Assembly: GCA_030628945.1 (NCBI GenBank) | Contig: DAOVPY010000002.1 | Location: 87,831 to 151,830, forward strand | DNA from: Candidatus Nealsonbacteria bacterium | GTDB taxonomy: Bacteria; Patescibacteriota; Minisyncoccia; Minisyncoccales; DAOVPY01 | DNA: 64,000 bases | Reading direction: 5' to 3' | In this document: positions 21,543-57,764 of the stretch, piece after piece | Numbering within the stretch: position 1 is the stretch's first letter | Layout of the letters: every line of letters starts with the position of its first letter | Made by a program: the position numbers and the translations under genes | The notes under the pieces: model-generated | The model's database searches: none | What the model was told of the DNA's origin: nothing | The model's input: only the letters and a program-made list of their open reading frames with translations

Positions 21543-22277
21543 TTACTTTTTTACTTGCTTAATTAATAATGCTGCCAATATCATGGTCGCTTGTGTTCTG
21601 GTCATGCTCTTCCAACTAATCGTCAATCCGATCTTTCGCTCTATTCCTCCAATGGTATTGATCCCCATTTCCCTGGCGATTTTTTTAATTCTTTCTTTCT
21701 CTGTTTCACTGGCAAACAATTTTTCAGTTTTATTTTCTGCCGGTTTCCCATTGCCGTTCTCCGGAGAAATAAACTTTTTATCTACTCTCTGAATTTCTTT
21801 GAATTCCTCTTTACCATAGATATCTGAGGCAATTCCTAACTCAGCGGCGCACTTTTTCAGAGCATCAGTGGCGGCCGCTTTCAAATCATTTCCATAATCA
21901 AGTGGGATTTTTGTGTTTTTCTTGAACTTTACATCGGCCCGGCCGAATTGCTCTTTAACTATCATCGCTTCTCCTTTCTTATTCTTAATGGTCAATCTAC
22001 CTTGAACCCACACCAAATCTCCTTCTCGGCCCTTGTCTTTAATTTCAAAATCCCATAGCCAGCCGAATGTATAATTGAGAATCTTTTTAACATAAACCCC
22101 TGTCACATAATCCCAAGTTCCGCCGCCTTTTCCCGGACGGTGATAGATGTGCTCCGCTGGGGTTTGTTGAGTGATAAAGAGCAACTGCTGAGCTTTGAGA
22201 AGCCCCGGAATTAACATCATCTTTTTTGTTATTTTCCTGGCTTCTTGCGCTTTAACCAATGCTTTAGTTTTAGCCAT
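21543..22277 (-). CDS. Rad52/Sak-type single-strand annealing protein
   Basis: WVQGRLTIKN...EQFG beta-hairpin region and KKCAAELGIASDIYG, typical of Rad52-family SSAPs. Confidence 0.65.
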   Translation of the reverse strand: MAKTKALVKAQEARKITKKMMLIPGLLKAQQLLFITQQTPAEHIYHRPGKGGGTWDYVTGVYVKKILNYTFGWLWDFEIKDKGREGDLVWVQGRLTIKNKKGEAMIVKEQFGRADVKFKKNTKIPLDYGNDLKAAATDALKKCAAELGIASDIYGKEEFKEIQRVDKKFISPENGNGKPAENKTEKLFASETEKERIKKIAREMGINTIGGIERKIGLTISWKSMTRTQATMILAALLIKQVKK

Positions 22278-22695: not shown

Positions 22696-23274
22696 TTACC
22701 GCTTTGCCCACTGGGGCGCGCGACGGGCTCGTTTGAGGCCGAATTTTTTTCTCTCTCTCATCCTTGAATCACGGGTTAAGTACCCCGCTTTTCTCAAACG
22801 TTTTTGGAAATCCGGATTAAAAAGAATGAGAATTCGGGCTGTTCCGTGCCTCACTGCTTCTGCCTGACCCTGCACTCCTCCTCCTCTTACCTTAACTAAA
22901 ACCCTAAACCTATCAAGGCATTTCATTTTTCTTAAAGAAGCGCTGGCAGTTTGTTGAAGTTCTTGAGTGGGAAAATACTCTTGATAAGGCTTATTATTTA
23001 TTAAAAATTCATTTTCTCCCCTAGTCCATAGCTGCACCCGGGCCACAGCGGTCTTTCTTCGACCGATTGCTCCTAAATACCGGGCCGGCTTTTTCACAAG
23101 TTTTTTTACTCCGTTAAATTGCTCGCCCTTGGGGCGAGCACCCCCGCTTTTAGCGGGGGATTTAACAGGGTGAACCTTTTTAGAAACCGCCTTCTTGGAC
23201 ACTGCTTTTTTCTTTAATTTTTTAGCATCCTTTGGCTGTTTTTTTAATTTGGCTGTTTTTTTAGTTATTGACAT
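22696..23274 (-). CDS. rpsI: 30S ribosomal protein S9 with ~60-aa Lys-rich N-terminal extension
   Basis: GRRKTAVARV...; C-terminal RRAPQWAKR. Confidence 0.95.
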   Translation of the reverse strand: MSITKKTAKLKKQPKDAKKLKKKAVSKKAVSKKVHPVKSPAKSGGARPKGEQFNGVKKLVKKPARYLGAIGRRKTAVARVQLWTRGENEFLINNKPYQEYFPTQELQQTASASLRKMKCLDRFRVLVKVRGGGVQGQAEAVRHGTARILILFNPDFQKRLRKAGYLTRDSRMRERKKFGLKRARRAPQWAKR

Positions 23275-32574: not shown

Positions 32575-32591
32575 AATTTTGTTTTAAAAAT

Positions 32592-32718
32592 GAGGAATGT
32601 GGTTTCAGGGACATATTGTAAGCGAGGCGAATGAAAATTTTTAGTATGGGGTGGTTGGGTGGGTCTAATTACTAAAAATTTTCATTTGCCGAGCGATATA
32701 AAACCAGCATTCCGAATG
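32592..32718. repeat. GGAATGTGGTTT-type structured intergenic element, copy B
   Basis: About 90% identical by eye to copy C. Nested inverted repeats ggaatgtggttt/aaaccagcattcc and aatgaaaatttttagta/tactaaaaattttcatt. Confidence 0.8.
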
Positions 32719-32723
32719 AATTA

Positions 32724-44771: not shown

Positions 44772-45275
44772 TTATCTTGGTAAAACTTCAATCTTCTGCC
44801 CCTCTTTGACCTTCACAATGGCTTTTTTGTATCCCTTTTTCCAGCCTGTAATTCTTCCCAACCGCCTATGACGTCTATGAACGTTGATAATTCTAACGCC
44901 AATAACGTCTACATTATAAAGACCTTCAACTGCTTTTTTGACTTCAATCTTGTTGGCTCTGGGCAAAATCTTAAAAGTATATTGGTTCTTCGCGACTAAA
45001 TCCGTTGCTTTTTCGGAAACATGGGGCGATTTTAAAACTCGATAAGCCGTACCCGAAATTTTTGCGCGCGGTTTTGAAACTTTCGGCTTTACCCTGTTAA
45101 ATTGCTTTGCGCCAGCTTCGCTGGATTTAACAGGGTGAATTTCTTTTCTCTCTTCAACCGCCTTTTCTTTTTTTATTTTTCTTGGTTTTTCCTCAACTCT
45201 AATCTTAGGGGCTTTTTTCTCCTCTTTTGGCTTTTCCTCTTTCTTCTTTTTTCTGAAAAAATCAAACAAACTCAT
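44772..45275 (-). CDS. rplW: 50S ribosomal protein L23 with ~75-aa Lys/Glu-rich N-terminal extension
   Basis: VLKSPHVSEKATDLVAKNQYTFKI...KIEVKKAVEGLYNV. Confidence 0.9.
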   Translation of the reverse strand: MSLFDFFRKKKKEEKPKEEKKAPKIRVEEKPRKIKKEKAVEERKEIHPVKSSEAGAKQFNRVKPKVSKPRAKISGTAYRVLKSPHVSEKATDLVAKNQYTFKILPRANKIEVKKAVEGLYNVDVIGVRIINVHRRHRRLGRITGWKKGYKKAIVKVKEGQKIEVLPR

Positions 45276-48716: not shown

Positions 48717-48745
48717 ATTCTATTAAAACTAAAAAAAAATGTCAA
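48717..48745 (-). promoter_or_regulatory. tuf promoter candidate
   Basis: Minus strand TTGACA, 17 nt, TAGAAT. About 95-nt leader containing a heptamer-repeat hairpin. Confidence 0.5.
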
Positions 48746-48841
48746 CCTTTATATTTATAATATAATTATACTAAATTATAGTTAAATGGGCAAGCCCTGT
48801 TAAATGCCACTTCGCGGCAATTTTGCGTGTAGCAAAATTAT

Positions 48842-49105
48842 TTAACAAGGCAAGTCCTCTATCTTCAATGGTTCGTTCTTTAGTCCTTCTGGCAACTGCT
48901 CATTATCTTGGTCTTTTTTAATTTCCCCGAGATTATTAGATTTATCCAAAATTTTTTTATAGTCCTCAAATTTGAGCACTGCCAACTCTGGCTTTCCGTT
49001 TTCCACAATAATAAGTCTGCCTTTATCTTTCTCTATTAAATTCTTGATTTCATCTAATTCCATGAATTTTAATTTTACCTTAGCAAACTCCTTCCAAAAA
49101 ATCAA
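48842..49105 (-). CDS. Phd/YefM-like antitoxin-domain protein (no adjacent toxin)
   Basis: GRLIIVENGKPELAVLKFEDYKKIL resembles the Phd/YefM N-domain. The last codons and the stop come from a palindromic element. Confidence 0.4.
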   Translation of the reverse strand: MIFWKEFAKVKLKFMELDEIKNLIEKDKGRLIIVENGKPELAVLKFEDYKKILDKSNNLGEIKKDQDNEQLPEGLKNEPLKIEDLPC

Positions 49106-51018: not shown

Positions 51019-51146
51019 CGAAGAATGTGGTTTTTGGGATAAATTGTAAGCGAGGCTAATGAAAATTTTTAGTATGGGGTGGTCTGGGTGGGTCTATTAC
51101 TAAAAATTTTCATTTGCCGAGCGATATAAAACCATATTCCGAGCGA
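51019..51146. repeat. GGAATGTGGTTT-type structured intergenic element, copy C
   Basis: Abuts the fusA stop codon; near-identical to copy B. Confidence 0.8.
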
Positions 51147-53255
51147 TTACCGGCGTTTGCCTTCCGCGATTTCCCGGGCAATGTTGCCCGGGACTTCCTC
51201 ATATTTGTCAAATTCCATAGTAAAGGTTCCTCTGCCCTCTGTAAGAGAGCGGAGCGAAGTGGCGTAGCCGAACATCTCTGCCAAGGGAACCTTGGCGTCA
51301 ATCACTTTCAAATTCAAGCGGTCGCTTGTTTCTTCTATTTTGCCGCGCCGCGCGCTCAAATTGCCCATCACGTCTCCTAAAAAGTTTTCCGGGACAATTA
51401 CTTCCAGTTTCATAATCGGTTCCAAAAGAATCGGCTTGGCTCTTTTTGTCGCGCTTTGCAATGCCTGGGAACCGGCAATTTTAAAAGCGATTTCCGAAGA
51501 ATCAACTTCATGGAAAGAGCCATCATATAAAGCAACGCTCATATCTATCAATGGATAGCCGGCAACCACGCCTTTTAACATTGCCTCTTTAATTCCTTTT
51601 TCAACAGCCGGAATAAACTCCTTGGGAATAATTCCGCCTTTAATTTCGTCAATAAATTCAAAGCCCTGTCCTCTTTCTTTTGACTCAACCCTGAGCCAGA
51701 CATGGCCGTATTGGCCCCTGCCTCCTGACTGGCGAATATATTTTCCTTCGGCTTCGGCTTCTGTTTTTATCGTCTCTTTGTAGGCAACCTGGGGCCTGCC
51801 CACGCTCGCTTCAACTTTAAATTCTCTTTTCATTCTGTCCACTAAAATATCCAGATGAAGTTCGCCCATTCCGGAAATAATGGTTTCTCCCGTATCAGGG
51901 TCGCCTTTTATTCTGAAAGTCGGGTCTTCCTCGGCCAAACGATGAAGAGCCATGCCCATTTTTTCCTGATCTGCTTTTGTTTTCGGCTCAATGCGAATAG
52001 CAATAACCGGCTCAGGAAAAGTAATTTCTTCCAGAACAATCGGCACGCTGTCCGGGTCGCATAATGTATGGCCTGTGCTGGTATTTTTGAGGCCCACGGT
52101 AGCCGCGATGTCGCCGCTAAATAATTCATCCACCTCTTCTCTTTCAGCGGCATGCATCCTTAAAATCCTGCCTAAACGCTCTTTCTCTCTGGTGGTGGTA
52201 TTCAGGATATAAGAACCCTTGCTTAACGTTCCGGCATAAACCCTAAAATAAGTAAGGGCTCCCACATAAGGATCTGTGGCAACCTTGAAAGCCAGCGCGG
52301 TGAACGGCTCGCTGTCATCGGATTTCCTGCTTATTTCTTTGCCTGTTTTTGAATCAACGCCGATAATCGCCGGCAAGTCAACAGGGCTGGGAAGGTAATA
52401 AACAACTCCGTCCAGCAAAGGCTGGACTCCTGTATTTTTCAAAGCGCTCCCGCAAAAAACCGGAATAAGTTTGTAATTTATGGTTGCTTGTCTTAAAACC
52501 CGTCTTAAATCCTCAATGGAAATTTCTTCGCGCGCCAGATATTTTTCCAGCAAATTTTCGTCTTCCGCAGCGATTTTCTCAACCATTTTGTCCCGCCATT
52601 TATGCGCTTTTTCCAATAAGCCAGAAGGGATTTCTTCTAATTTTACTTTCTCACCCAAATTGCCTTCAAATTTCAGCGCTTTCATAGAAAACAAATCAAC
52701 CACTCCGCTTAAATTCTGTTCTTCTCCAATTGGAATCTGCACGGCGCAGGCGTTCGGAGAAAGTTTCTGGACAATGGAATTAAAACTCTTTTCAAAAGAG
52801 GCGCCTATTCTGTCCAATTTATTGATAAAACATATTCTTGGCACCTTAAACTTATCTGCCTGTCGCCACACGGTTTCTGATTGCGGCTCTACTCCGGCAA
52901 CGCCGTCAAAAACAACTACGGCGCCGTCCAGCACTCTAAGCGACCTCTGAACCTCAACGGTAAAATCAATATGGCCGGGTGTGTCAATAATGTTAAATCT
53001 ATGCTCGTTTGTTTTTTCTTTGGTTAAATATTCTTCCGGCGACCAAAAGCATGTTGTTGCCGCGGAAGTTATGGTAATCCCCCGCTCTCTTTCCTGCTCC
53101 ATCCAATCCATAATCGCTTTTCCTTCATGCACCTCGCCGATTTTGTGGGAAATCCCTGTATAAAAAAGCACCCGTTCAGTCACGGTTGTTTTCCCTGCGT
53201 CAATGTGCGCTATAATGCCAATATTTCTGTATTTTTCTATTGGATACTTTCTCAT
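51147..53255 (-). CDS. fusA: Elongation factor G
   Basis: [21 protein letters not shown]; 702 aa. Confidence 0.98.
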
Positions 53256-57520: not shown

Positions 57521-57764
57521 TTTTTCTTTCCTCTTTTTCCTCTTTTTTTTCTCTCCCAAAAAATTTTCAAATTGCTGTTATCTGAATTATATTACAACGC
57601 AAACCAAAAAAAGTCAACCCTATACGCCTAAAAACCCCATTACAAACTAATCCGATCGGATTAGTTTGTAATGGGACAAAAAAGATGTTTCTGCAAACAC
57701 CCGGTGTTTGCAGAGTGTTTGTAAATAAATTTAAAAACAGGAACTACGTTCCTGCTTCTTCTGT

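Follow-up and report, generated by a model that had tools for sequence, protein, structure and literature searches.

A 64,000-nucleotide (nt) stretch of the Candidatus Nealsonbacteria bacterium contig DAOVPY010000002.1 (hereafter the window, with positions counted from its first letter) carries three copies of a palindromic DNA element, two of which lie in frame within the genes of ribosomal proteins S9 (rpsI) and L23 (rplW). We find it likely that these copies belong to a family of mobile DNA elements, very small and non-autonomous, that move as a unit of TTCA plus a core into the target R|YAAR (R, purine; Y, pyrimidine; the bar marks the point of insertion). What is new here is an extremely small, structure-defined and duplication-free mobile element whose ends are common across phyla.

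The pattern CCCTGTTAAAT-(22–40 nt)-ATTTAACAGGG is found three times in the window, as is GTTAAAT-N10-40-ATTTAAC, for which 0.04 occurrences are expected and which none of 100 shuffled sequences contained three times; scans with looser patterns gave no fourth copy in the window. The original prediction, made from the letters of the window alone, had placed a palindromic element within rpsI (at 23110–23170) and further copies with the same termini in rplW and between genes, and all three are present, the first with its core at 23109–23170 and the other two where predicted. Copy 1 (23105..23174, minus strand), identified by its sequence, its fold, the open reading frame (ORF) around it and its absence from the nearest S9 homologues, has the plus-strand core CTCCGTTAAAT...ATTTAACAGGG; on the coding (minus) strand, TTCA (23174–23171) is followed by the core (23170–23109), which reads CCCTGTTAAAT-[CCCCCGC..GCGGGGG]-[TGCTCGCC..GGCGAGCA]-ATTTAACGGAG (brackets enclose hairpins), and then by TAAA on the target side (23108–23105). 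Copy 2 in rplW (45088..45139, core 45092–45135, minus strand), identified by sequence, ORF, fold and absence from the nearest L23 homologues, has two perfect ends; its coding strand runs TTCA, core (45135–45092), TAAA, the core being CCCTGTTAAAT-[CCAGC GAA GCTGG]-CGCAAAGCA-ATTTAACAGGG. The conserved ends of these two copies reach 4 nt further, giving TTTA-core-TGAA on the plus strand. Copy 3 (48791..48854, core 48795–48850, intergenic, with no strand assigned), identified by sequence and fold, reads CAAG, then the core CCCTGTTAAAT-[GCCAC TTC GCGGC]-[AATTTTGC GTGTA GCAAAATT]-ATTTAACAAGG, then CAAG again, and belongs to a 56-nt subtype with covariation (see below). As had been noticed from the letters, the inner hairpins differ: the interiors of the three copies are unlike in sequence. 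Whichever strand is taken, every window copy folds into an outer stem with inner hairpins (DNA z scores -4.2 to -8.2, matched by none of 200 shuffles), copy 1 into a three-way junction with z = -8.2.

S9 (22696..23274, minus strand; ORF with PF00380 homologues) carries copy 1 in a Lys-rich N-terminal extension, and L23 (44772..45275, minus strand; ORF with PF00276 homologues) carries copy 2 in a Lys/Glu-rich one. The ORF translations agree with the predicted peptides HPVKS...QFN(G/R)VK, in the same orientation and frame in both proteins: S9 reads ..KKV-HPVKSPAKSGGARPKGEQFNGV-KK.., with the insert as residues 35–56, and L23 reads ..KEI-HPVKSSEAGAKQFNRV-KP.., with the insert as residues 47–62 (that the inserts are translated is taken from the intact ORFs). 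Aligned with their orthologues, both segments are lineage-specific indels. The closest S9 homologues (P0002–P0005; 70–86% identical) keep the extension, similar on both sides of the insert, without the 21–22 residues, and in the nearest L23 homologues (P0242, P0243, P0249, P0250) the extension is present and the segment missing, the L23 insertion amounting to 48 nt, that is, the 44-nt core plus 4. Among the 120 S9 homologues listed, three proteins (P0012, P0014 and P0032) carry the element at other positions of the extension, and among the 120 listed for L23 two carry it, one of them (P0291) at a different position. The orthologues do not, then, share the peptide, the few other carriers having their inserts elsewhere, and on these alignments the S9 and L23 copies are best read as lineage-specific insertions and not as conserved protein sequence. 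A downstream GTG start for S9, which would leave the element in the leader, was rejected, since homologues conserve the protein sequence of the extension upstream of the insert; copy 1 is thus inside the coding sequence. Lys-rich disordered extensions of ribosomal proteins would offer many TAAA-type targets and tolerate added loops, which would explain the S9 and L23 copies.

A scan for CCCTGTTAAAT-N12-42-ATTTAACRRRG with one genome per species gave at least 119 matching loci, as compared with a chance estimate of ~17 for the pattern, and the 119 loci listed, all from other genomes, hold ~130–150 copies, so that the repeat recurs well beyond the window, as expected from the original prediction. 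By record title the loci listed come from many Patescibacteria classes, and the other titles name Desulfobacterales, WOR-3, Omnitrophota, Armatimonadota, Cloacimonadota, Calditrichaceae, Acidobacteriota, Bacteroidales and some 'Gammaproteobacteria' bins. Spread of the family beyond Patescibacteria looks real, because the Desulfobacterales and WOR-3 copies form subtypes of their own that recur across several metagenome-assembled genomes (MAGs). The Desulfobacterales copies (loci L017, L018, L020, L030, L045, L046, L072, L099 and L101) lie within a ~250-nt repeat unit with inverted ends of its own (CTTCGTAAAAAGTC... and ...GACTTTTTACGAA), and in the WOR-3 copies a 40-nt interior is conserved, as are the flanks (AACCACAGA). 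A phage or plasmid vector was considered and rejected, since viral contigs (IMG/VR) gave only three matches and the plasmids and phages of cultured organisms gave no copies, with matches at chance level only. One IMG/VR contig (L124) has at 889–934 a canonical copy, TTTA-core-TGAA, that is flanked by CTACAGCC direct repeats and lies just downstream of a 679-residue ORF, judged from its translation alone to encode a phage terminase large subunit. A literature search with the exact termini returned only primers and coincidences, and the searchable literature on palindromic elements, transposable elements of the miniature inverted-repeat type (MITEs) or Rickettsia palindromic elements (RPEs) in the Candidate Phyla Radiation (CPR) held no description of the element; the family has apparently not been described so far.

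The element measures 39–70 nt, rarely up to ~170 nt, and consists of a left end, TTCA-CCCTGTTAAAT, a right end, ATTTAACAGGG, and a variable interior of one or two hairpins; the longer forms (120–170 nt) follow the same plan, with one hairpin that has a large loop. The 11-nt termini are invariant in the recovered copies, as the scan pattern demanded, and four positions beyond the pattern are 70–80% conserved. Pairs of equally long interiors share a median identity of 41%; folded by themselves, interiors have a median z of -1.9, versus +0.2 in control segments. In the 56-nt subtype (nine copies, including window copy 3), 97.3% of the cells are paired and nine pairs have changed on both sides, which none of 500 shuffles matched, and the outer stem has the compensatory variants GTGAAAT/ATTTCAC and GTTAAGT/ACTTAAC. 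The ends are constant across copies, and the interiors retain one or two hairpins despite their varied sequences. Decay of the ends is seen in older copies (HPIKS, QLNGV, ATTTAACGGAG in window copy 1), which means that the ends are not maintained in place but are kept at the level of the family, as expected if intact copies alone spread. One copy is nested, inserted after the TTCG loop in the hairpin of another copy; nested and tandem arrangements, the latter with spacers of 3–4 nt, are found at L058 812–929, L080 2051–2228, L052 1630–1700, L114 6022–6118 and L015 2051–2161.

The best pair of empty and filled sites comes from the gene of RsmA/KsgA, in which the empty site of L125 reads GCTAAGAAAG|CAGGGAAAGTT and the filled site of L212 reads GCTAAAAAAG[TTCA CCCCGTTAAAT...ATTTAACGGGG]CAGGAAAGGTT, that is, TTCA plus a 35-nt core, or an insertion of 39 nt with 1 nt of ambiguity. 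A second pair, L128 (AGA GTA AAA AAA) and L022 (AGA G[TTCA+56]TA AAA AAG), agrees with the first. Insertions of 39, 48, 57 and 60 nt all equal the core plus 4, and the spacer between tandem copies is exactly TTCA or TGAA. The flanks are asymmetric, with TTTA..TGAA and its reverse complement TTCA..TAAA found 38 times, compared with 10 times for the symmetric combinations (Fisher p = 3e-4). With 77 copies placed TTCA first, purines occupy the two upstream positions (74% and 86%), and the four bases after the core are Y-A-A-R at 85–87% each. No target duplication is seen in the pairs L125/L212, L128/L022 and L209/window (RsmA/KsgA and L23 sites), and only 5 of 152 copies have identical 4-mers on both flanks. 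Taken together, the empty and filled pairs, the core-plus-4 lengths, the tandem spacers and the asymmetric flanks define a unit that is TTCA plus core and a target RR|YAAR (e.g., G|TAAA or G|CAGG) that is retained beside the insert with no duplication. The two ribosomal copies of the window conform to this, their coding strands running TTCA-core-TAAA, and copy 3 is flanked by CAAG on either side. A symmetric parse (CA-core-TG into TT|AA) fitted three sites but is contradicted by the tandem spacers and by L125/L212.

These junctions bear directly on whether the element could be a classical MITE, that is, a deletion derivative of an insertion sequence (IS) that encodes a DDE transposase, has the same terminal inverted repeats and moves by cut-and-paste. 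Perfect 11–15-nt terminal inverted repeats, small size, many copies and a mostly intergenic location would all suit such an origin, as would direct repeats of 7–10 nt in the flanks of 27 of 130 copies, compared with 6 in the control. However, many of these repeats are conserved between copies and are hence parts of longer repeat units, and we rejected target-site duplication on the grounds that the excess comes largely from the conserved longer repeats of Desulfobacterales and WOR-3, the clean empty and filled sites in RsmA/KsgA and L23 having none. The asymmetric flanks and the core-plus-4 unit are not those of a MITE, selection on interior hairpins would be unexpected in one, and ~1.4 Mb of loci contain no long, transposase-bearing element with these ends, the longest copies, with terminal repeats ~146 nt apart, lacking an ORF. 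All in all, we consider a MITE origin quite improbable. The element does share with MITEs such as Correia, ERIC and Chunjie its terminal inverted repeats, its non-autonomy, its mostly intergenic location and its occasional in-frame fusions (PMC10969869), but it is much shorter, has no target-site duplication and no parent IS that we could find, and is constrained in the structure and not in the sequence of its interior.

RsmA/KsgA provides a case of repeated insertion. Among its 120 homologues listed, 12 carry the element at one and the same codon, between motif I and the V-A-x-E-x-D strand; in a neighbor-joining tree the carriers fall on at least seven separate branches beside empty sisters, and their interiors are of different kinds, with one hairpin or with two. 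Carriers scattered in this way indicate repeated gain or loss at a hot spot. At the same codon, L213 (P0195) and P0135 have a different GC-rich palindromic in-frame insertion, K-PARNAFGIADAGG-K, with the DNA sequence AAA CCT GCC CGC AAT GCC TTC GGC ATA GCC GAT GCA GGC GGG, which makes the loop a hot spot for more than one family of palindromic elements.

With respect to ORFs of at least 100 codons, 15–17% of copies are located inside ORFs, versus 79% of random positions, and ~85% are intergenic. Nearly all copies within ORFs are in the stop-free frame PVK...FN(R/G), the frame CCC TGT TAA of the termini being closed by a stop. The reading frame common to S9 and L23, to which the original prediction drew attention, is therefore real but largely forced: one terminal frame holds TAA, and only stop-free frames survive in genes. 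Survival within a gene would need a unit length that is a multiple of three as well as a stop-free frame, and an insertion of this kind would add a loop of 13–22 residues, (V)HPVKS...(Q)FN(R/G)V. The host proteins are unrelated to one another and include RsmA/KsgA, glycosyltransferases, MurJ, an ABC ATPase, LeuRS and a DsbD-like membrane protein. We give next to no credence to the view that HPVKS...QFNRV is a peptide module selected at the protein level, with the palindromy of the DNA being secondary. Such a module would explain why the same peptide ends recur in S9, L23, RsmA/KsgA, glycosyltransferases, MurJ and the ABC ATPase, but ~85% of the copies are outside ORFs, the same DNA gives LLN..LTG in other frames or contributes a stop codon, the central part of the peptide is under no constraint whereas the hairpins of the DNA persist, and the nearest orthologues do without the peptide.

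The TTCA-first strand is the sense strand of neighboring genes in a ratio of 29:11 (p = 0.006), with a tendency to be the one richer in G (38:23, p = 0.07); a purine bias of the loops relative to the gene strand was set aside as weak (54:44). In the window, the TTCA-first strand is purine-rich and presumably the leading-sequence strand. The genes near the window copies are all on the minus strand, and over the window (1–64000) the GC skew of the plus strand is strongly negative (-0.11 to -0.27) and its AT skew is negative throughout, so that the minus strand, which carries these genes, is purine-rich. The tuf gene is located ~175 nt downstream of copy 3, and the TAA stop codon (48842–48844, minus strand) of the ORF at 48842..49105 comes from the end of this copy. 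On the minus strand upstream of tuf, an outward-facing TTAACA of copy 3 and a TATAAT are spaced 17 nt apart, an 11/12 match to the sigma-70 consensus (48775–48854), and a second site, TTGACA-17-TAGAAT, follows at 48745..48717. In two loci, element ends stand directly upstream of start codons, as ...ATTTAACAGGGTAAAAAA(A)TATG (L007 4883–4917 and 5477–5487; L090 6272–6327), namely those of rplL and rplJ for L007 and that of a long ORF for L090; the GGGT(G/A)A of these ends might act as a ribosome-binding site. The distances to start codons are distributed with no clear enrichment.

Might the element be kept because it benefits the host, as a structured RNA or protein-binding site (a processing or regulatory hairpin, a promoter or a ribosome-binding site), with no mobility involved? 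Structure is strongly conserved and supported by covariation, some copies abut start codons and offer the Shine-Dalgarno-like GGGTGA, copy 3 places its TTAACA at promoter spacing upstream of tuf, and there is a moderate strand bias relative to genes. On the other hand, neither strand folds better than the other, copies are scattered in their positions relative to genes and are found within unrelated coding regions, their presence varies among close homologues, and their ends decay in place. Rfam had nothing to offer at the copies, as the window at gathering score gave only tRNAs and five element-bearing loci at E ≤ 1 gave no match at the elements. Promoter donation by the outward TTAACA was rejected because 262 element ends show no enrichment of −10 boxes at promoter spacing. 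A host function is thus a very remote prospect in our estimation.

Movement of the element would run through folded single-stranded DNA, one strand forming a Y-shaped three-way junction, and would be catalyzed in trans by an enzyme that recognizes structure. As to this enzyme, our best guess is an IS200/IS605-like single-strand transposase of the HUH type (Y1 or Y2), for which the lack of duplication, the short retained target, the selected hairpins and the complementarity of TTCA to TGAA/TAAA all argue. According to two reports (PMC5027513; PMC5934647), IS608 inserts 3' of TTAC as hairpin-bearing single-stranded DNA, keeps this target without duplicating it, needs the retained target for subsequent transposition and finds it by base pairing with a 4-nt guide sequence. 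The element resembles the IS200/IS605 family in inserting beside a short, specific, unduplicated target and in its hairpins in single-stranded DNA: YAAR (YTTR on the other strand) adjoins the core and is also there in empty sites, the tandem spacers agree with this, and the TTCA of the element, being complementary to a TGAA/TAAA-type target, may pair with TRAA much as the IS608 guide sequences do. The target would survive insertion and be free for re-use, and this would account both for the tandem arrays and for the shared codon in RsmA/KsgA. The ends would be invariant across phyla because only intact copies would be mobilized.

Several observations weigh against mobility of this kind, or against the data on which it is built. 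When 811 ORFs were clustered all against all, no gene of any kind recurred beside the copies, and hence no transposase or recombinase gene. Genes for Y1_Tnp proteins, similar to REP-associated tyrosine transposases (RAYTs; REP, repetitive extragenic palindrome), occur in only 3 of the 119 loci listed (L003, L090 and L102), and a single element is found in 465 kb of metagenome loci around 80 relatives of RAYT-like genes, 2 kb from the gene. IS200/IS605 elements have no terminal inverted repeats, whereas the conserved part here is a terminal stem of 11–15 bp. If the strand with the target first (5'-YTTR|core-TGAA) corresponds to the IS608 top strand, it is mostly antisense and C-rich; IS608 reportedly has a bias for the lagging-strand template, opposite to this placement. 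Some Desulfobacterales and WOR-3 copies are contained in longer conserved repeats flanked by direct repeats, and the phylum labels depend on the binning of MAGs. Finally, the homologues compared as empty and filled sites are only 55–86% identical, which is the source of the 1-nt ambiguity at the junction, and the S9 comparison fits the core plus 1 as well as the core plus 4, its sequences being too diverged to decide.

More generally, the ends of IS200/IS605 elements are not inverted repeats of each other, each having its own subterminal hairpin, while those of the element pair together and both strands fold alike, in contrast to hairpins formed on one strand. No TnpA is linked to element copies in the 80 loci around Y1_Tnp relatives, and the strand bias has no clear match. 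REPs have a conserved GTAG foot, are species-specific and flank a RAYT gene. The element is like REPs and REPINs in being a short, mostly extragenic palindrome present in many copies, but its ends are alike across phyla and there is no GTAG at its foot; we rejected a RAYT/REP system in view of the single element in the 465 kb around RAYT-like genes, to none of which it is adjacent. A domesticated Y1 enzyme is considered to move REPs and REPINs in trans, according to one report (PMC8266576).

Many of the same features could instead reflect a Xer- or IntI-like tyrosine recombinase that acts on folded or abutted ends, the termini being its binding arms and the junction ATTTAACAGGG-TTCA-CCCTGTTAAAT a dif-like core, with the element spreading by conservative site-specific recombination into weak secondary sites. 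XerD cleaves at the border between its arm and the central region of dif, and the junction proposed here, GGG|TTCA, is found at just such a border. The sequences GTTAAAT and ATTTAAC match the motifs GTTRRRY and RYYYAAC of integrons. The absence of target duplication would be accounted for, tandem junctions hold two inverted arms 3–4 nt apart, a universal host recombinase would explain ends that are invariant across phyla, and conserved structure with free sequence follows the logic of attC sites. Moreover, the XerD arm of dif, which is highly conserved (TTATGTTAAAT; PMC2731167), has the same outer 8 nt as each terminus (TGTTAAAT), 8 of 11 nt being common to the two. Against this stand a target consensus of only ~6 nt (RR|YAAR) with no recognizable binding arm, inner arm bases that differ from dif at three positions (CCC instead of TTA), an arm spacer of 4 nt (or 6 with 10-nt arms) that is not a demonstrated Xer geometry, and arms in reverse order relative to attC (GTTRRRY...RYYYAAC). 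Nor does a 28-bp XerC-6-XerD site exist here, the arms facing each other only at tandem or circle junctions, 3–4 nt apart. No recombinase-like cluster recurs among the neighboring ORFs when these are grouped by similarity, a grouping that did not include an intI-directed scan. On balance, a tyrosine recombinase, the chief alternative to an HUH enzyme, seems to us an unlikely agent of movement.

The attC sites themselves have the order RYYYAAC...GTTRRRY and are located at the 3' end of each cassette in an array beside intI. In common with them, the element conserves folded structure and short terminal motifs (GTTAAAT, a GTTRRRY) and leaves its interior free, but its copies are dispersed and occur in genes, and no intI recurred beside them, although the neighboring ORFs were not scanned for intI specifically. 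We rejected an attC site because the order is GTTAAAT...ATTTAAC on both strands and the loci contain no cassette arrays.

In its behavior the element comes closest to what the original prediction proposed, namely a selfish palindrome like those of Rickettsia. RPEs are ~150 bp long, have been described in Rickettsia, fall into ten families and are conserved over their whole sequence (review, PMC10969869). Like them, the element is a gene-less palindromic repeat found between genes and in frame within unrelated housekeeping genes, where a family-specific peptide is tolerated (PMC10969869), here (H)PVKS..FN(R/G)V in S9, L23, RsmA/KsgA, glycosyltransferases, MurJ, the ABC ATPase and LeuRS. It differs from them in its 39–70 nt, in having ends that alone are conserved and an interior that is free, in hosts from several phyla, and in a defined unit and target, TTCA plus core entering R|YAAR without duplication. 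It is thus RPE-like in behavior only and not an RPE, set apart by its size, hosts and pattern of conservation, and the family is limited neither to CPR nor to ribosomal proteins, since the copies are in several phyla and mostly intergenic. By the features compared here, the element belongs neither with the RPEs nor with classical MITEs, REP/RAYT systems or attC sites.

The window contains further repeats. Two nearly identical stretches of ~120 nt (32590–32720 and 51020–51150) form a second family, each with a G-rich loop of 23 nt enclosed by a 21-nt inverted repeat (GGCGAATGAAAATTTTTAGTA / TACTAAAAATTTTCATTTGCC), and a perfect 40-nt palindrome, CCCATTACAAACTAATCCGA|TCGGATTAGTTTGTAATGGG, is located at 57636–57675. 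The ORF at 21543–22277 (minus strand), which comes after a small ORF downstream of rpsI, has a match to the Rad52/Rad22 family of Pfam (PF04098).

Patescibacteria have very small, streamlined genomes, and yet selfish DNA is tolerated here inside essential genes of translation. For annotation, this means that 'extensions' of ribosomal proteins and odd loops may be derived from elements, and alignments of phylogenetic marker proteins are affected as well. The repeated insertions in RsmA/KsgA amount to a natural experiment on which protein loops tolerate insertions. Identical ends across phyla, an interior conserved in structure only, the absence of duplication and a unit and target fixed to the nucleotide together imply a broadly distributed mobilizing enzyme, which the element sequences defined here make directly searchable and testable. 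More tentatively, the family may represent a hitherto unrecognized minimal class of mobile DNA common to distant phyla, a Y-shaped element of 40–70 nt that would need just its structure and a 15-nt end, a widely conserved HUH or Xer-like enzyme, and base pairing of its TTCA for targeting, a possibility that we raise while doubting that it will hold in full; if it does, the element would be a natural, programmable, cargo-free insertion module that time and again remodels essential proteins, S9, L23 and RsmA/KsgA among them.

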